From a virus, in the IMG/VR virus record IMGVR_UViG_3300044729_001198, positions 1-64,000 of that record: DNA of 64,000 nucleotides, one strand, 5' to 3'. Below the pieces are notes generated by a model. The model saw only the letters and a list, made by a program, of their open reading frames with translations. It had not been told where the DNA came from and did no database searches. The position numbers were made by a program, and so were the translations under genes. Of this stretch, positions 1 through 10,216 are shown one piece after another; position 1 is the stretch's first letter, and every line of letters begins with the position of its first letter.

Positions 1-1
1 G

Positions 2-2716
2 AGCGCCAGTAGCACCTTGAGCACCTTGAGCACCAACAGCACCTTGAGCGCCAGTAGGAGATGCTCCTTGAGCGCCGGTAGCACCTTGAGCGCCAACAGC
101 ACCTTGAGCGCCAGTAGCACCTTGTGGTGAAGCACCTTGAGCACCAGTAGAGCCAGTTGGACCTACAGCACCTTGAGCACCTTGAGGTGAAGCACCTTGA
201 GCGCCAGTAGCACCTTGAGCACCTTGAGCACCAACAGCACCTTGAGCGCCAGTAGGAGATGCTCCTTGAGCGCCAGTAGCACCTTGAGCGCCAACAGCAC
301 CTTGAGCGCCAGTAGCACCTTGTGGTGAAGCACCTTGAGCACCAGTAGAGCCAGTTGGACCTACAGCGCCTTGAGCACCTTGAGGTGAAGCACCTTGAGC
401 ACCAACTGCGCCTTGAGCGCCAGTAGCACCGGTAGCTCCTTGAGCCCCTTGAGGTGAAGCCCCTTGAGCGCCAGTAGCACCTTGAGCACCCGTTGGTCCT
501 GTCGCACCTTGTGAACCTTGAGGACCTGTAGAAGTCGAACCTTGTAAACCTTGGGCACCAGTAGCACCTTGTGACCCCTGAGCTCCTTGGGGTGAAGCAC
601 CTTGAGCGCCGGTAGCACCTTGAGCACCAGTTGGGCCAGTTGGTCCGGTAGGACCTTGAGCTCCGGTAGGACCTACTCCTCCTTGAGCGCCTGTAGAGCC
701 AGTAGCACCTTGAGCTCCTTGGGGTGACGACCCCTGAGCACCCGTAGCACCTTGAGCACCTTGAGCACCCGTAGCACCTTGTGGTGAAGCACCTTGAGCG
801 CCGGTAGCACCTTGAGCACCGGTAGCACCTTGAGCACCTTGAGCACCTTGAGGTGAAGAACCTTGAGCGCCAGTAGCACCTTGGGCTCCGGTAGCACCTT
901 GGGCTCCGATTGTACCCTGTGGTCCTTGAGCTCCACTAGCACCTTGAGCACCTTGAGCGCCGGTAGCACCTTGCGGTGAAGCACCTTGAGCACCAACAGC
1001 ACCTTGAGCTCCAGTTGGACCAGTTGGTCCGGTAGGACCTTGAGCACCCGTTGGGCCGGTAGCACCTTGAGCACCCGTTGGGCCGGTAGCACCTTGAGCA
1101 CCTTGAGGTGAAGCACCTTGAGCCCCAGTAGCACCTTGAGCACCTGTTGGACCTACAGCACCTTGAGCACCTTGAGGTGAAGCACCTTGAGCGCCAGTTG
1201 CACCAGTAGCACCTTGAGCGCCAGTAGCACCTTGTGGTGAAGCTCCTTGAGCACCAGTAGCACCTTGAGCGCCCGTTGGGCCGGTTGGGCCAGTTCCACC
1301 AGTATTTCCTTTATCACCTTGAACTCCTTGAGGGCCGGTAGCACCCTGAGCTCCTTGAACACCTTGTGGGCCAGTAGTACCTTGAGCACCCGTTGGACCA
1401 GTAGCACCTTGAGGGCCGGTCGGTCCCGTTGGACCGGTAGCACCTTGAGCGCCTTGAGATCCCGTAGCACCTTGAGCTCCCGTAGAACCCGTAGCACCTT
1501 GAGCTCCAGTAGAACCCGTAGCACCTTGAGGACCGGTAGCACCTTGAGCTCCAGTAGAACCAGTAGCACCTTGAGGGCCAGTAGCACCTTGAGCGCCTTG
1601 AACACCTTGTGGGCCGGTTGGGCCAACAGAACCTTGAGCACCAGTAGCTCCTTGTGGACCGGTAGCTCCTTGTGGACCTGTACCACCTTGTGCGCCGGTA
1701 GCCCCCTGAGCACCAGTTGGACCAGTACCACCCTGTGCGCCAGTAGCACCTTGAGCACCTTGAACACCTTGTGGGCCGGTTGGGCCAACAGAACCTTGAG
1801 CACCAGTAGCACCTTGAGGGCCGGTTGAGCCGGTTGGACCAGTACCACCTTGAGCACCAGTAGCGCCCGTTGGACCAGTACCACCTTGAGCTCCGACAGC
1901 CCCTTGAGCTCCAGTAGCACCTTGTGGGCCGGTTGAGCCGGTTGGACCAGTTGGACCAGTACCGCCCGTAGCACCTTGAGCGCCGGTAGCTCCTTGTGGG
2001 CCGGTTGGGCCGGTTGGGCCAGTTGGTCCAACAGCGCCTTGTGGGCCGGTGGAACCAGTAGCCCCGGTATTGCCTGTAGGACCAGTTGGTCCTTTAGCTC
2101 CTTGAGGACCGGTTGGTCCTAAATTTCCTTTTGAACCTTGAGGGCCCGTTGGACCAGTAGCTCCTTGAGGACCAGTTGGTCCGGTAGCACCCTGAGCTCC
2201 TTGTGGGCCGGGACCACCAGTTACCCCTTGAGGACCTTTAGCACCCGTTGGGCCGGTAGCACCTTGAGCGCCCGTTGGACCAGTACCACCTTGAGGACCA
2301 GCGGGTCCCTGAGCTCCTTGGTTTCCTTGAATACCTTGGGGACCGGTAGCACCAGCAGGTCCTTGTGGACCAGTAGCACCTTGAGCACCCGTTGCGCCCG
2401 TATTACCCTTATCACCGACAGTTCCTTGTGGGCCAGTACCACCTGTAGCACCTTGAGCTCCTTGTGCGCCCGTAGCACCAGCGGTACCCGTAGCACCTTG
2501 AGCTCCTTGAGCTCCAGTAGAACCTGCGGGTCCGGCAGAACCTTGAGCTCCTGTGGCTCCCGTTGGTCCAGTCGGTCCTACACCACCTTGAGCGCCGGTA
2601 GCTCCTTGTGGGCCGGTTGGGCCGGTTGGACCTGCGGGACCTGCGGGGCCGGTAGGACCAGTACCACCAGTATCACCCTTTTGACCTTGTGGGCCGGTTG
2701 GACCGGTTGGGCCGGT
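2..2716 (-). repeat. Collagen-coding tandem 9-bp-based repeats (GGT GCT CAA etc.) with a near-exact 198-bp duplication at the left end
   Basis: Continuous agcaccttg-type units; the sequence at position 1 recurs at 199; GC far above the flanks. Confidence 0.95.
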
Positions 2717-3136
2717 ATTGTGTACAAGTAAACTACCTACAAAATAATTGTGGTCTGGCTCAACAGTAATTGATATAGTTTGTATAGTCTCATTAACTAC
2801 TTCTAAATTTGTAATAGTTAATGGGGTTGAATCTTTACTAAATAAATTTAGCGAAGAATAATTTTCTTCAGTTGGAGTCACCCAAGTTCCAGCAGTTGTA
2901 TATACTGAAAGGTCTGATGATGCTTTAACTATCTGACCATTGGAAAGAGTAACTTTAATGTATGTGGTTAATTCTACATCACGAACTTCCGTAACTTCAG
3001 ACGTTGATTGTTGTGATGTTTGTGTATTGTATGAATCAACAAAACTACCAGATTGTATATGGTAAAAGAATGGACATGAATTACCATTGATAACCACACC
3101 TTCTATCGAATTATGTAAACTATGTATAGCGCTCAT
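2..3136 (-). CDS. N-terminal Hint (intein-like) domain + very long collagen-like G-X-Y fibre protein; 3' end runs off the window
   Basis: Not in the ORF track (no stop in window). ATG at 3136 gives [13 protein letters not shown]...[20 protein letters not shown]|[14 protein letters not shown], then about 905 aa of GAQ/GAT/GPT triplets. Frame checked at 2-10, 1322-1330 and 2702-2728. Confidence 0.9.
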
Positions 3137-3144
3137 TTTATACC

Positions 3145-3828
3145 TTATGTAAATGGTTGAATCTTGTATGTTATCATCAACGTATATAAGTCACAAGTAT
3201 TTGTGTTTTTATTCAATTCAAATTCAATTTTATCACCACGTTGAAATGAATATCCAGACCCAAATGCAAAATCATAAACAGCATATTGTGTACTTGCTAA
3301 TGCGTTAGTAACAGGAGTGCCAACAGTCGCAGCATTTACATATGGTTGAATTGTATAATTAGCGGTTGTGGTATTTGTTTGACCAACCATCAATTGAATT
3401 GTATGGACGAATCCAGCATAAGGAGCTATCCAAGTTCCATATGGTGATTGTGCGGGTTGTAAATCTGATATGATTGCCAATGGTGAAAACCCATCAGGTT
3501 GACCTCTGTGTTCTACAGGTATCAACGTGGTTACAATGTCATATCCTTGTAATAATTCATTATTTACAACACGAGTTTGCACTACACCACCCGAACCGGA
3601 TACAAATATCCGTGTTGATGTTGTGCTTGTAGCAGCAGATGTTAATATTAAACCAGTAAACGTAGGAGCATCGCTCGTCTGAAGTCCTAAATCAATATTA
3701 GAACCATTTACCGTTAAATTACCCTGTGAGGGTGATGATATAGCGGAAGCGGATACAAATCCGGTCCCACCGAAATTAAGTTGACTGGCACTTGAGCCAG
3801 ATACTATGACTTTTTTCCAATTTGGCAT
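3145..3828 (-). CDS. Virion fibre/structural protein ([13 protein letters not shown]-terminal module)
   Basis: 227 aa, Ser/Thr/Gly-rich; N-terminus and SASA..SPSQG.LTVNG.NIDLG segment shared with 4319..5845; SD AAGGA. Confidence 0.7.
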
Positions 3829-4318: not shown

Positions 4319-5845
4319 TTATGAGTAGATAAAAATATCTCCATCAGCAGAAATTGCGATGTTACCTTCGTCATCATAACCAGCAGCTGTAGCCGCTGTA
4401 GATGCAGCAAATCCATTGGCAACCGACACATAGGCGGTAGTCATGAATGCGTCAGCAGTTACACTTGTAGCAGTAGAAGCTACACCATTAGCAACAGCCC
4501 AACGTTGGTCAAGGAAATCATAGTAGAATGCAGTACCTATACCAGCAGAACCTGATTCAACAATAATACCACCTTCGCCTGCTGGTACTACTGAACCAGA
4601 ACCAGCGTTCAAGAAGACAAATCTATCTTCAACAACAAGGTTAGATGTATTGATTGTAGTAGTTGTACCATTTACAGTCAAATCGCCAGTGATGGTCAAT
4701 GCAGCAAATGTTGGTGAATCGCCAGTCTGAACACCCAAGTCGATGTTAGTACCATTTACAGTCAAAGTACCTTGAGATGGTGATGTAACAGCCGAAGCGG
4801 AAACTACACCAGTACCATTCAAGATTGTAGCAGCAGTAATAGAACCACCCAATGATGTGGAAGTTCCAGCAATTGTAATAGCAGAGTTAGCCAATTTAGC
4901 ATTAGCTATCGTACCATTTACAATGTGTCCGTTTTGAATTGATGAAGAAGCAATTTTGACATCAGTTACGTTAGCATCAGCAATTTTAGCAGTAACCACA
5001 GCACCAGCAGCAATCTTACCACTTGTAACAGCATCGTTGTCGATTTTAGCGGTAGTTACACCAAGGTTTGCTAATTGACCACTATCAATAGAACCTGAAA
5101 TCACAACAGCACTAAGCGTACCCGCTGTATTTGTTAAATCGATAGTAGCACTATCAGTTACACCTGTAATAGCACCAGAACCTGATAAGATACCAGAACC
5201 TGCGAAACTAATCTTTGTGTATTCAATAGCAGCAGCAGCGGCTACAGCAGCGTTAACAATCTGACCTGCACCAATTTTAGCACTTGTAATAGCATTGTTA
5301 GCAATAGTAGCAACACCAGGCGCAGTAATTGTGATATCACCACTTACGTTTGTTAAGTTAGCGTAAGATGCTGAAGTAGCGGTTGAAGCGTTACCTGTTA
5401 AAGCACCAACAAATGTAGTAGATGTTACTGAAGATAAACCAGAAATTGTAGTAGCAGATGAACCTAATGAAACTGCGGTAGAACCAATAGTTACTGATGA
5501 GTTAGCCAATTTCGCGTTAGTTACGTTACCATCAATGATGTTTGCACTTGCAACTGAACCAGTAGCCAAAGCGGCTGTGATTACAGCACCAGCAGCAATT
5601 TTACTACTAACTACAGCATTATCAGCAATTTTACTAGCTATTACAGCACCAGCAGCCAACTGACCTTGGTCAATAGAACCTGAAGCTACCACACCACTAA
5701 TAGAACCTGCGGATAATGTTAAATCAATTGTTGCTGTATCGGTTACGGCGGTGACTGCGCCAGATCCAGACAAAATACCAGTACCAGCGAAACTCAATTG
5801 AGATACGGCTGAGCCCGATACTATCACTTTTTTCCATGTTGCCAT
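4319..5845 (-). CDS. Tail-fibre-like protein with repeated AV(T/V)xxKIA motifs
   Basis: 508 aa; [12 protein letters not shown]; repeats such as NAVVSSKIAAGAV and DAVTSGKIAAGAVVTAKIAD; SD AGGAG. Confidence 0.75.
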   Translation of the reverse strand: MATWKKVIVSGSAVSQLSFAGTGILSGSGAVTAVTDTATIDLTLSAGSISGVVASGSIDQGQLAAGAVIASKIADNAVVSSKIAAGAVITAALATGSVASANIIDGNVTNAKLANSSVTIGSTAVSLGSSATTISGLSSVTSTTFVGALTGNASTATSASYANLTNVSGDITITAPGVATIANNAITSAKIGAGQIVNAAVAAAAAIEYTKISFAGSGILSGSGAITGVTDSATIDLTNTAGTLSAVVISGSIDSGQLANLGVTTAKIDNDAVTSGKIAAGAVVTAKIADANVTDVKIASSSIQNGHIVNGTIANAKLANSAITIAGTSTSLGGSITAATILNGTGVVSASAVTSPSQGTLTVNGTNIDLGVQTGDSPTFAALTITGDLTVNGTTTTINTSNLVVEDRFVFLNAGSGSVVPAGEGGIIVESGSAGIGTAFYYDFLDQRWAVANGVASTATSVTADAFMTTAYVSVANGFAASTAATAAGYDDEGNIAISADGDIFIYS

Positions 5846-6571: not shown

Positions 6572-9500
6572 TTATGGTGCGGATGCCGTATCCGGCATCA
6601 AATAATATCTTGAGTTGTTAGTATTTTTACCTTCAGCAAAAATCATACCCCAACGGGTATATCCTTGATATGCTGATTGTAAATCGAAGTAATACACACC
6701 GGTCCCAATCGTACCTGGAATAGCAGCGTCTTTAGCATATGTGTAATATTCATTAGCAGTTCCAATAGAATCGGGCGGAACGCCATCATACATACTTGCG
6801 GGTTTACCTCCTAAATTAGAAGCGGATGGGAAAATTATTAACAATCGTTGTGATGTGGAACTAAAATTAAAATACCCAAGTGTGGATATTCCTGTAGCTG
6901 ATGTATCTGACATAGTTGATAGCGAACTACTCTTATGTAAAGTACAAGCACCACCAATATAAGATGGTGTAAACGTACTACCTAATGACCCACTTTGTAA
7001 CATAGCTATTACCGACCCACTTGTAATTCCAATACCATCAGCATCAGTATCACCTAAAGATGCGATAGCCGTGGATTGGTTAGCAGCAGAACCACCACTC
7101 CAACCATATCCATATACAAGGCCTATTTGGTCTGATATAGTTATTGTATTTGAAGAATATGTTCTTGACTTACCATGCACATCCGTAATTGTAGCATCGT
7201 ATGTCAATGTTTGACCACTTGAAATTGTTGATACATTTTTTATAACATATGATGATGAATTTGCGTTTTGTGGAACTGCGTATAAGTCAGACCCATTTGT
7301 ACCACCAAGTGACATTAAGAATGGAGTATCAGTTTCCATGTCAGTTATACTTGCACTTACTAATCCGGTATTGGCCGATATAGATGCCGTTAGGTTAGTA
7401 GTAATTGGGGTGAATGATGCCGTTGGTACACTATTAGAAGCCACATTTATTGTTATACTACCACTACCAATGTTATTGTATTGGTCACGGAATGTTATAT
7501 TTGATGTAAATGTTTGACCTGATGTGTAAGAGCCACTAACATTTTGTGCTATTGATATAGCGCCAGTTGAGGTAACACCTACAAGAGCATTCGATGATGT
7601 AAATGATTGAACCGCAGCCAAATTGTATTGTGGTGAGTATGTAACTCCCAAATCACCTTGAGTACCACTTCTACCATTTGTACTTGTGTAAATCAAAGCA
7701 CCACTTCTTGCAGTTTCTATAACGTAGAACGTACCATTTGTTGTTAAAGTACCAACAGGAGCTTGAGCGATGGTTATTGAGAATGGGAATGAAGCAGAAC
7801 CACTTCCCACTTTACCAAAACTATCAGCAACGCTTCCACTAAATGTATAAGTTCCAGCGGGTACATTTGTATTAGCATAAATGTAATAGTTGTCACCACT
7901 TTGAAGATGACTAAATCCAGCTGAAGAAGATACTAATTGGAAACTTGAATGATTTATAGTATCACCAATACCAGGTTGTGGTTCTCCAAATGAAACAATG
8001 GCTAGATTTTGAGGTGACCTAGCCCCATTTGTATTTAAATAACTCGAATACGCAACCGTATTAGAAGCAATGATGGGTGCTAAATTTGGAGTAACTCTTA
8101 ATGTGTGAGTTCTATATTGTTTTGTGGTTTCAAACGAAGTTTCTGAAGCCGTTACTTGTACTTGAATTGTAGAGCCAGACGTGTATATAGAACCACTTAT
8201 ATGACTTGCTAGTTCAAGAGCAAGTGATGTAGAGCCGGTATATTGTGTAGTTCCGTTTGTAAATCTAACATACCCAGCCGGTGAACTATTGACTTTCCAC
8301 ATTTGTGAAACGGCTGACGAGTATGTAATACTACCAGCAGTATATCCATCGGTGTTTGTGGTTAAATCAGCACCAGATACTGCGGATTCTACTATGTAAT
8401 ACGTTTGTGTATCAGACCCAATAGTTGAACTAGCATCAGCATCAATTGGTATGGTGATTTCTGCGGTATCGGTAGTGGTATTGTAAGCATCACTCACGGT
8501 CACTAAATAAACATATCTATCAGCTACATCAGAGTTTAAGTAAACTCCATTTTTACGAGTTACACTTCCACCGGATGTACATTGGAATGGGTCAGCGTGT
8601 GGGTCATATAAAGACGTACCACCTAAAGACGAAGTAATGTTTGTACCAACACTATTAAGATATGCGGATATTAATGTGAAGTTACTAAATACTATAGTAT
8701 CACTCTCCGAATCAGTAGCAGTTATTGAACCAACAGTCGTACCATTTGATGAGTTTTCATTTATAGCAGTTAAAGTCTGATTATTTACTACAGGAACTAC
8801 GTTATCGACTACTGAAACTCTAAATGGTAAGTATGTAATTGAATCAGAATCATCACCATCTTGATAATGTTGGTCACTTGCCGTGAGTACAAAATTGTAA
8901 TGAGTTGTGGTCTCATAATCCAATGAAGCAGTTACTTGATTCAATTGAACATATGTAGCGCCAAGCGTCAATGAGAATTCGGATGGTACTGACCCCGTTC
9001 CTATTGTGATTGTATCACTTTCAGCATCGGTAAAATATACTCTAACTTTGTTATTAGCAGCTGTAGAGTTTTCGTTTAAAGATTGTGTATATGATGTTAC
9101 AATAGAGCCCCCAGTTGAAGTTTGTCTCCAAACAGGAGCCGTATTTGGATTAACACGGATATATACAGTTTGAGAACCAACTCCAAAAAATGTATCAACG
9201 GCTTCTACCAAAAATGGATGTGAACCAGAACCCGGAGTGGTATCCGTATTCATAGATGCGGTTGATTTTGTGTTCAATGTAATTTGACCGGCCGATGATA
9301 TCTTGAATAAGTCAGCGGTGTACAAACTTGAAGTTCTAAATGTAATTGATTGTGCTTCAGCATCGGTAGCAGATACAATACCGACCACCGAACCACTAAC
9401 CTCAAATTCTTGAATAGTAAATCCAGTAGTTGTTATTACAGGAACACTATTTGGAAAGAATACTTTTTCAATAAAATTTGCAAGAGAACCACTTGTAGCG

Positions 9501-10216
9501 AAATTTGTATTATATACGCCAGCGGGTAAATTAGTATTAGATACCACACGATTACCATCAAATGTGGTTAACGGATTTGTTGATTGTGATAACGCAGTAT
9601 CAGACCCATTCGATGATGTATTGATTGTAATGGTGATAGCGTTGCCGGTATTTGTTGCAACTACACCATTTCCTACAAAATCTATACTTCTAACATTTAC
9701 CGATAGAACAGAACCTTCATCTGAAGCGGTAATTGCTAAACCAGAACCACCACCACCACCTGCAAGTGCTGATAAATCAACAGAATTACCATTTGATATA
9801 GTGAGCGCATTTGTAGATGGATTAAATGAAAGTGTTTGAGCGTCTGAACCGGTAGCGTCTACGTCATTTTCGATAGCAGACATTCGTGTAGCAATTGAGC
9901 TTGAAAATGATGATATAGTAGATACTATTGAACTTGAAACAGCGGAAGTGTTTTGAGATTGTGATACAATTCTATCTTGAATAGACGCTGAAAAATATGG
10001 GAATGTTCCCGGAGTAAGAACACTACCTTGTTTAAATTCAGTAAACGCCTTTATCTGATTAGATTGAAATGGTGTTATGTATTGACTTTGCGCGGGTTTG
10101 TTTGGTATGGCTGTAAAGTCTATTTGTGCAGACGATGAATATATACCGCTGCCAATTAGTGAACCACTAATTGACCCTTGAAACGAACCGCTAAAAGAAC
10201 CGCTGTAATCCGGCAT
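6572..10216 (-). CDS. Large virion protein with cadherin-like Ig repeats
   Basis: Cadherin motifs IQEFEVSGSVVGIVSATDAE, LDYETTTHYNFVLTASD, INENSSNGTTVGSITATDSE. Confidence 0.75.
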   Translation of the reverse strand: MPDYSGSFSGSFQGSISGSLIGSGIYSSSAQIDFTAIPNKPAQSQYITPFQSNQIKAFTEFKQGSVLTPGTFPYFSASIQDRIVSQSQNTSAVSSSIVSTISSFSSSIATRMSAIENDVDATGSDAQTLSFNPSTNALTISNGNSVDLSALAGGGGGSGLAITASDEGSVLSVNVRSIDFVGNGVVATNTGNAITITINTSSNGSDTALSQSTNPLTTFDGNRVVSNTNLPAGVYNTNFATSGSLANFIEKVFFPNSVPVITTTGFTIQEFEVSGSVVGIVSATDAEAQSITFRTSSLYTADLFKISSAGQITLNTKSTASMNTDTTPGSGSHPFLVEAVDTFFGVGSQTVYIRVNPNTAPVWRQTSTGGSIVTSYTQSLNENSTAANNKVRVYFTDAESDTITIGTGSVPSEFSLTLGATYVQLNQVTASLDYETTTHYNFVLTASDQHYQDGDDSDSITYLPFRVSVVDNVVPVVNNQTLTAINENSSNGTTVGSITATDSESDTIVFSNFTLISAYLNSVGTNITSSLGGTSLYDPHADPFQCTSGGSVTRKNGVYLNSDVADRYVYLVTVSDAYNTTTDTAEITIPIDADASSTIGSDTQTYYIVESAVSGADLTTNTDGYTAGSITYSSAVSQMWKVNSSPAGYVRFTNGTTQYTGSTSLALELASHISGSIYTSGSTIQVQVTASETSFETTKQYRTHTLRVTPNLAPIIASNTVAYSSYLNTNGARSPQNLAIVSFGEPQPGIGDTINHSSFQLVSSSAGFSHLQSGDNYYIYANTNVPAGTYTFSGSVADSFGKVGSGSASFPFSITIAQAPVGTLTTNGTFYVIETARSGALIYTSTNGRSGTQGDLGVTYSPQYNLAAVQSFTSSNALVGVTSTGAISIAQNVSGSYTSGQTFTSNITFRDQYNNIGSGSITINVASNSVPTASFTPITTNLTASISANTGLVSASITDMETDTPFLMSLGGTNGSDLYAVPQNANSSSYVIKNVSTISSGQTLTYDATITDVHGKSRTYSSNTITISDQIGLVYGYGWSGGSAANQSTAIASLGDTDADGIGITSGSVIAMLQSGSLGSTFTPSYIGGACTLHKSSSLSTMSDTSATGISTLGYFNFSSTSQRLLIIFPSASNLGGKPASMYDGVPPDSIGTANEYYTYAKDAAIPGTIGTGVYYFDLQSAYQGYTRWGMIFAEGKNTNNSRYYLMPDTASAP

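Follow-up and report, generated by a model that had tools for sequence, protein, structure and literature searches.

The known kinds of Hint domain are inteins, BILs, Hedgehog processing domains and pretoxin modules. Three residues contribute to the N-terminal acyl shift: the nucleophile at position 1, the His of block B and the Asp at F:4, which is the F:4 residue of canonical inteins such as Npu DnaE and Mtu RecA. In inteins mutated at Cys1 the C-terminal cleavage by Asn cyclisation persists. PT-HINT (PF07591), the pretoxin Hint of polymorphic toxins, is found within long secreted proteins that have a large N-terminal part, before a C-terminal toxin module. Asn cyclisation is the third step of protein splicing and cuts the bond after the terminal Asn; it is used likewise by type A BILs, and in BIL autoprocessing, where cleavage dominates, it frees the downstream polypeptide (PMC4031507). 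The N-terminal thioester of BIL2 is used to conjugate a ubiquitin-like domain (PMC8616854), and inteins with Ala1 that splice by direct +1 attack also exist (PMC4031507, PMC2807308). A domain that removes itself from a trimeric phage fibre is an idea also embodied by the Peptidase_S74/endosialidase-type C-terminal chaperones of tailspikes and fibres, which differ from Hint domains in having an unrelated fold and a Ser-Lys dyad, in their C-terminal position and in being known to drive trimerisation.

The domain described here forms residues 1-140 of a collagen-like fibre protein encoded on the minus strand at the start of the window, i.e. the first 64 kb of an IMG/VR virus record of 186,631 bp that is rated 98% complete. 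It is placed outside canonical inteins, type A BILs and PT-HINT, because when tested against the defining features of these classes it departed from each of them. Among the features of canonical class 1 inteins, His-Asn and a Cys, Ser or Thr at +1 are present, while the position 1 nucleophile (Gly or Ala in 12 of 16 orthologues), the T-x-x-H of block B and insertion between two exteins are lacking. The type A BILs (CthBIL, PDB 2LWY) and the Tetrahymena BUBL BIL2 (PDB 6TMM/6Y75) gave the best profile and structure matches, and the fibre Hint resembles BILs in its small size, in having no endonuclease and in its C-terminal His-Asn. However, BILs retain Cys1 as well as the block B His, and a thioester forms at their N-terminus, whereas the fibre Hint has Ser, Gly or Ala at position 1 and no block B His; BILs have no +1 nucleophile, whereas the +1 residue of the fibre Hint is an invariant Thr; and the fibre Hint, unlike BILs, lies at the extreme N-terminus with only five residues ahead of it and carries a phage collagen fibre as its cargo.

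Mini-inteins (gp41-1, Npu and Ssp DnaE, Ssp DnaB) share the fold, the His-Asn and a hydroxyl residue at +1, but the fibre Hint interrupts no host protein, is without a real N-extein and has lost the catalytic residues of blocks A and B. PT-HINT, its best Pfam match, likewise sits directly N-terminal to a module thought to be released, whereas the fibre Hint has no toxin module and is followed by about 1,000 aa of collagen and a 45-aa knob. Judging from its residues, we infer that in its action the fibre Hint comes closest to a type A BIL or to an intein mutant with C-terminal cleavage. Its predicted chemistry equals that by which Cys1-mutant intein tags release a target protein through Asn cyclisation, and the domain would thus appear to be a natural counterpart of engineered N-terminal inteins with C-terminal-only cleavage.

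A Hint domain at the N-terminus of a collagen-like fibre protein

Translation of the window yielded one ATG-started ORF at 2..3136 (-), of which the first 140 residues are non-collagen and map exactly to 2717-3136; this part ends with His139-Asn140, followed by Thr141-Gly-Pro-Thr-Gly and unbroken G-X-Y repeats. All of the Hint strings quoted by the first-pass annotation were found in this translation, and the estimate of approximately 15.5 kDa given there for the Hint fragment compares with a computed 15.4 kDa for residues 1-140. The start codon is considered reliable, since all 16 orthologues share Met1 and most loci have an in-frame stop 0-8 codons 5' of the ATG (33 codons in L021 and L022). 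The gene upstream (3145..3828 (-), 227 aa) is in another frame, its stop lies 8 nt before the Hint ATG, and its position is occupied in orthologous loci by a fibre-type gene with an MPNWKK... N-terminus; it is not an N-extein. A true intein fused to the upstream ORF through a missed frameshift was considered and rejected, given the different frames, the stop between them, the invariance of Met1 and the variation in upstream distances among loci. The earlier statement that nothing lies upstream to splice therefore holds insofar as there is no real N-extein, but five residues do precede Hint position 1 according to the alignment offset to 6y75.

The ORF exits the start of the record and resumes in frame at its end (L002:9636-9998(-)), where the final 363 bases encode, on the same strand, more collagen, a globular C-terminus of about 45 residues and a stop. 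An exact overlap of 18 nt is common to the two record ends (window 1-18 and G000:C1:186614-186631), and this overlap together with the in-frame join of the collagen ORF indicates that the "linear" record is a circularly permuted genome. It was opened by the assembler within the collagen repeat, and many other family contigs likewise stop inside the repeat. The joined protein is approximately 1,160-1,166 aa, compared with 1,171 aa in the closest orthologue.

The collagen-like G-X-Y region was delimited by translation and Pfam Collagen (PF01391; E 1.3e-13 in the fibre protein) and spans residues 141-1045 at 2..2716 (-), with approximately 120 more residues across the record ends. G-X-Y runs hold 945 of the 1,026 residues of the collagen part, in triplets where Ala or Pro predominates at X and Thr or Gln at Y, and Lys is rare. 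Nineteen two-residue breaks of the G-A-S-P-Q-G type (PQ 14 times, PT 3 times) occur in the C-terminal half only, at residues ~633-1045 (window 2-1240 (-)). The C-terminal knob of about 45 aa is conserved in the family (alignment A4), and its profile found no match in the PDB. By analogy with T4 fibritin, and given its conservation, the knob is a candidate trimerisation nucleus; the suggestion of the first-pass annotation that the Hint itself acts as a trimerisation or folding chaperone found no support. Furthermore, no Peptidase_S74/endosialidase-type domain was detected in the fibre protein by Pfam. Neighbouring genes encode a T4-type portal, the large terminase, baseplate wedge proteins, an RNA ligase/tail-fibre attachment catalyst and tail-fibre proteins, and by portal protein the closest relatives in culture are Microcystis phage Mel-JY01 (57%) and, at 49%, the Flavobacterium 'immuto' phages, all with fibres that lack the Hint domain. 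The protein is a collagen-like virion fibre of a T4-like myovirus from an uncultured aquatic (marine) lineage.

The Hint (intein/BIL-like) domain at 2717..3136 (-) was identified by Pfam, by profile comparison with the PDB, by AF2 and by Foldseek. Pfam PT-HINT matched the window protein at E 4.7e-6 and 27.4 bits, 0.3 bits short of the gathering cutoff of 27.7, and matched 15 of 16 family members at E<=0.01 (best 1.2e-7). Comparison of the family profile with the PDB recovered solved Hint structures with E-values of 6e-11 for BIL2 (Tetrahymena BUBL1 locus), 1.6e-7 for the BIL of Clostridium thermocellum and 2e-5 for the gp41-1 intein, among others. From the family alignment, AF2 built a model with a pLDDT of 87, and Foldseek aligned it to BIL2, CthBIL and many mini-inteins at TM 0.75-0.83 (probability 1.00) and to the Hedgehog processing domain at TM ~0.7. 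With a profile E of 6e-11 and a Foldseek E of 1e-9 (TM 0.81), the match is far above chance, and residues 1-140 are a member of the Hint (Hedgehog/intein) fold superfamily. The Hint hallmarks proposed for this 140-aa domain were thus borne out by profile, AF2 model and Foldseek alike: HMM and structure searches of residues 1-140 against Hint, BIL and PT-HINT returned BIL2, CthBIL and inteins, with PT-HINT just under its cutoff.

The same architecture was found in 23 other viral contigs and approximately 12 metagenomic protein clusters. Members with both Hint and collagen comprise 22 IMG/VR loci, one ENA contig and a further member, L035. Scanning IMG/VR with the Hint domain returned the 22 loci in which collagen follows the Hint directly, plus a terminase-like gene with a genuine intein. 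When 1.84 billion representative proteins were searched with a profile, 3,821 Hint relatives were obtained, including about 12 clusters (at 50% identity) of the fibre-Hint family, and the junction reads HN followed by TGP in every one of these clusters that shows it. One metagenomic protein of 350 aa (P0002) contains the same three parts in shortened form. Complete family genes encode 1,064-1,363 aa, with 700-1,090 aa of G-X-Y and a shared C-terminal knob; their Hint domains are 133-153 aa long, and 16 orthologue domains are 36-82% identical to that of the window. A search started from the knob added further members, in which the Hint is present wherever the contig includes the N-terminus, and among loci with a visible N-terminus no closely related fibre without a Hint or with a disrupted Hint was found. 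The Hint appears to be vertically conserved with the fibre gene, unlike sporadic mobile inteins.

The architecture was not found in cultured phages: tblastn with the Hint gave only weak matches, in Erwinia jumbo phages, and megablast of 6 kb around the gene gave no match. No description of a Hint or intein-like domain on a phage collagen or tail fibre was found in the literature. An N-terminal Hint on a collagen fibre had been called unusual, and neither cultured phages nor the literature supplied a precedent. In most orthologues (L004-L015, L017, L019 and L023, not the clade of the window) a Cys-rich insert, e.g. SCGCSDCKCG, occupies Hint residues ~95-110, the loop that is the endonuclease site of inteins. 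Pfam Metallothio_Euk matches 5 of 16 family Hints, and the insert may be a metal site.

Conservation of catalytic residues in the two halves of the domain

Numbering of the Hint was set by a constant alignment offset to 6y75, whose chain has the N143A position at residue 148 and its residue 11 aligned with profile position 11. This constant offset places Hint position 1, the equivalent of intein Cys1, at family residue 6, which in the window is Ser6 (3119..3121 (-); family alignment and BIL2 numbering). Cys21 was also considered as the Cys1 equivalent and was ruled out, as it is unconserved and the BIL2 alignment sets position 1 at residue 6. The five residues that precede position 1, M-S-A-I-H in the window (3122..3136 (-); family alignment and 6y75 offset), read M-x-x-I-H in the family with Met1, Ile4 and His5 invariant, and this leader is extended to seven residues in one clade. 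Leu7 and His8 are also strongly conserved in the alignment of 16 orthologues.

The residues associated with the N-terminal step have drifted. Position 1 is Ser in the window and three other orthologues, Gly in eight and Ala in four, so there is no conserved nucleophile. The degenerate block B (S73-S74-D75-L76, 2909..2920 (-)) was located by hhalign against a canonical Hint (P0125) and by MAFFT with canonical units; hhalign sets these four residues on T-S-N-H, in agreement with the earlier proposal that SSDL replaces TxxH. Ser73 is invariant, and the His position is Leu, Ile or Ser in the family. The F:4 position carries Ser in place of Asp in the orthologues and corresponds to Ser122, seven residues before the block F His by hhalign against P0125, which itself has Asn there.

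The residues of the C-terminal step are retained in blocks F and G (residues 122-140, 2717..2773 (-)), a segment that includes Ser122, His129, His139 and Asn140. None of the 16 orthologues departs from His129 (block F), His139 (penultimate), Asn140 (terminal) or Thr141. Thr141 (2714..2716 (-)) is the +1 residue and the predicted first residue of the mature fibre (TGPTG...), as judged from the 16 orthologues and from those metagenomic fragments that include the junction. The intact His-Asn-Thr junction recognised in the first-pass annotation is therefore not only present in the window but kept without change throughout a diverged family. Of the 20 columns for residues 122-141, 15 are invariant, compared with approximately 14% in the remainder of the domain. 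The invariant residues of this segment are each encoded by two or three synonymous codons, with the exception of Asp128, which uses only one; Ser122, for example, is encoded by both AGT and TCA among orthologues. Synonymous codon changes at invariant residues imply that selection acts on the amino acids and not on the DNA. Blocks F and G of the fibre Hint are, furthermore, nearly identical to those of the bona fide intein recovered by the IMG/VR scan, a large intein (Cys1, TADH, HN followed by C) in a terminase-like gene of another viral contig (L025:4285-6400 (+)). From these alignments, the N-terminal acyl-shift machinery has been lost and the residues of the C-terminal step have been kept.

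A second giant collagen-like gene of 1,822 aa lies directly downstream of the first on the same strand (record end L002:4154-9622 (-), G000:C1 ~180785-186253). In its product, a ~158-aa N-terminal domain is followed by a Cys-rich segment and then by several blocks of collagen, with a PA14 domain and a knob that resembles the one on the first fibre. The N-terminal domain ends in ...IEPDDVYILNGYIVHN followed by Ser. In its orthologues, of which at least 11 are distinct, His-Asn is invariant while S, A, F, D, V or P occurs at +1; of these, Pro is unfavourable for cleavage. Aligned to the Hint profile with hhalign, only the last 25 residues of the domain matched (E 3.7e-4, probability 36%), and AF2 modelled the domain with a pLDDT of just 47.5. 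Profile comparison with the PDB returned nothing relevant, Pfam and NCBIfam returned nothing, a scan of the phage's own genome with the fibre Hint profile (A2) missed the domain, and cultured phages contained no tblastn match to the N-terminus of this gene. The downstream fibre may plausibly have a second Hint leader, of a more degenerate kind.

Predicted C-terminal cleavage and alternative readings

The asymmetric conservation within the first domain is the pattern expected if only the Asn-cyclisation step of splicing had been kept, and on the strength of this pattern the Hint leader probably cleaves only at its C-terminus by Asn cyclisation. Under the proposed mechanism, the fibre would be made as a precursor with an N-terminal Hint descended from an intein or BIL-type autoprocessing domain. 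Once folded, the side chain of Asn140 would attack its own peptide carbonyl to form a succinimide, breaking the Asn140-Thr141 bond; the products would be a 15.4-kDa Hint bearing the succinimide at its C-terminus and a mature fibre with TGPTG as its first residues. Ligation would not take place, since the N-terminal (thio)ester cannot form, and only the third step of protein splicing would be retained. The C-cleavage-only leader of the first-pass annotation is thus upheld with respect to the loss of the N-terminal residues and the invariance of the C-terminal ones, while cleavage itself is deduced from conservation. As a best guess, the leader would transiently cap the N-terminus, either to aid solubility or to act as an assembly checkpoint, in a chain of approximately 1,000 residues that would stay unfolded until triple-helix formation is nucleated by the C-terminal knob. 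The Hint would be such a checkpoint if, as may be the case, cleavage has to wait until the triple helix is complete.

Several considerations count against cleavage. Asn cyclisation is slow in many inteins unless it is coupled to the earlier steps, and the conservation of blocks F and G may be partly structural, because these blocks are core beta-strands. A cleaved, mature fibre would have no globular N-terminal domain and would need to attach to the virion through a bare triple helix or through the C-terminal knob. This last point keeps alive a non-cleaving role in anchoring: the fibre without its Hint has no N-terminal attachment domain, and the Hint could instead be a permanent globular head, e.g. 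an adaptor docking the collagen rod to the neck, baseplate or capsid, in which His-Asn-Thr is kept for structure or docking. Such a head would fit the strong conservation of Ile4, His5, Leu7 and His8, which have no obvious role in Asn cyclisation, and the presence of a Hint in annotated virion structural proteins, namely PHROG 38766 and Erwinia jumbo-phage gp110. It cannot account, however, for the block F His, the penultimate His and the Asn being invariant while three residues of the N-terminal half drifted, nor for the case of the paralogous fibre, whose N-terminal domain is unrecognisable except that it ends with His-Asn, the sole invariant motif there, and a docking head is on these grounds regarded as rather unlikely, although it is the most serious competitor to C-terminal cleavage.

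The conservation of the leader and of Thr141 also bears on a working splicing reaction of the class 2 type, in which Thr141 would directly attack the bond between His5 and residue 6 and the M-x-x-I-H peptide would be ligated onto the collagen. Thr+1 is an invariant potential nucleophile, and Ile4 (-2) and His5 (-1) are invariant as well; but the block B His and the F:4 Asp, the activators of the N-terminal scissile bond, are missing, Thr141 is perhaps conserved merely as the residue preceding the triplets, and ligating five residues brings no evident gain, making splicing of this type very improbable. That the Hint is a decaying, functionless relic of an intein or BIL would be compatible with the loss of three catalytic positions in its N-terminal half. 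Yet a full-length domain is present in every member down to approximately 35% identity, with no frameshifts, synonymous change accompanies amino-acid invariance and the AF2 model is confident, so that decay is scarcely credible as an explanation. Self-cleavage at the C-terminus is accordingly the reading preferred here.

Neighbouring genes, other Hint arrangements and implications

Three genes lie past the two collagen genes (record end L002:2-4113 (-)) and encode a 2OG-Fe(II) oxygenase, a GT2 glycosyltransferase and a fusion of GT4/GT1, GT25 and an OGFOD2-like oxygenase; this set resembles a toolkit for collagen hydroxylation and glycosylation. Upstream of the collagen genes are a 508-aa tail-fibre protein (4319-5845 (-)) and a 1,214-aa protein (6572-10216 (-)) whose match to the cadherin repeat is sub-threshold (26.9 bits, cutoff 28.8). 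An MPNWKK(V/I)xxSGS N-terminus is shared by several fibre genes that occupy the corresponding positions in related loci.

The only match in cultured phages is gp110 of Erwinia jumbo phages (Alexandravirus; PHROG 38766), a virion structural protein whose Hint also ends in HN followed by T. Unlike the fibre Hint, however, the gp110 Hint keeps Cys1 and T-H-E-H, is C-terminal with only 10 residues after HN, and is not associated with collagen. As a canonical Hint protein, gp110 of pEa_SNUABM_2 (L028:1813-3255 (+)) is a mirror image of the fibre arrangement. Among uncultured phages, a fibre-like protein of 1,352 aa on a 105-kb phage-like contig (P0049, L041:4348-8406 (+)) carries two canonical Hints (Cys1, T-x-x-H, HN followed by K) after a 6-residue leader, and N-terminal Hint leaders may be more widespread in such phages. 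Two metagenomic proteins (P0053 and P0013) consist of head-to-tail arrays of 4-8 canonical Hint units, with HN(K/R)C followed by CFLAGT at the junctions, and end in a poly-Gly/Pro stretch, a short collagen-like run and a C-x-E-E-C tail. It is a tentative proposal, somewhat more doubtful than cleavage in the first fibre itself, that N-terminal C-cleaving Hints are an obligatory, conserved maturation device of a class of phage collagen-like fibres, acting in both adjacent fibre genes and occurring in other forms elsewhere (e.g. P0049).

If C-terminal cleavage is true, a natural Hint cut down to its Asn-cyclisation half and used as an N-terminal propeptide would represent a further functional class of the superfamily, and a natural version of the intein tags used in protein purification. 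As the family is both compact (133-153 aa) and diverse, it could yield new cleavage tags that work next to Thr-Gly-Pro. For phages, such cleavage would constitute a second, chemically unrelated route of fibre maturation next to the C-terminal chaperone-proteases. It would also offer a handle on the folding and virion mounting of a bacterial-type collagen of 1,000 residues, at a locus where hydroxylase and glycosyltransferase genes point to collagen modification.
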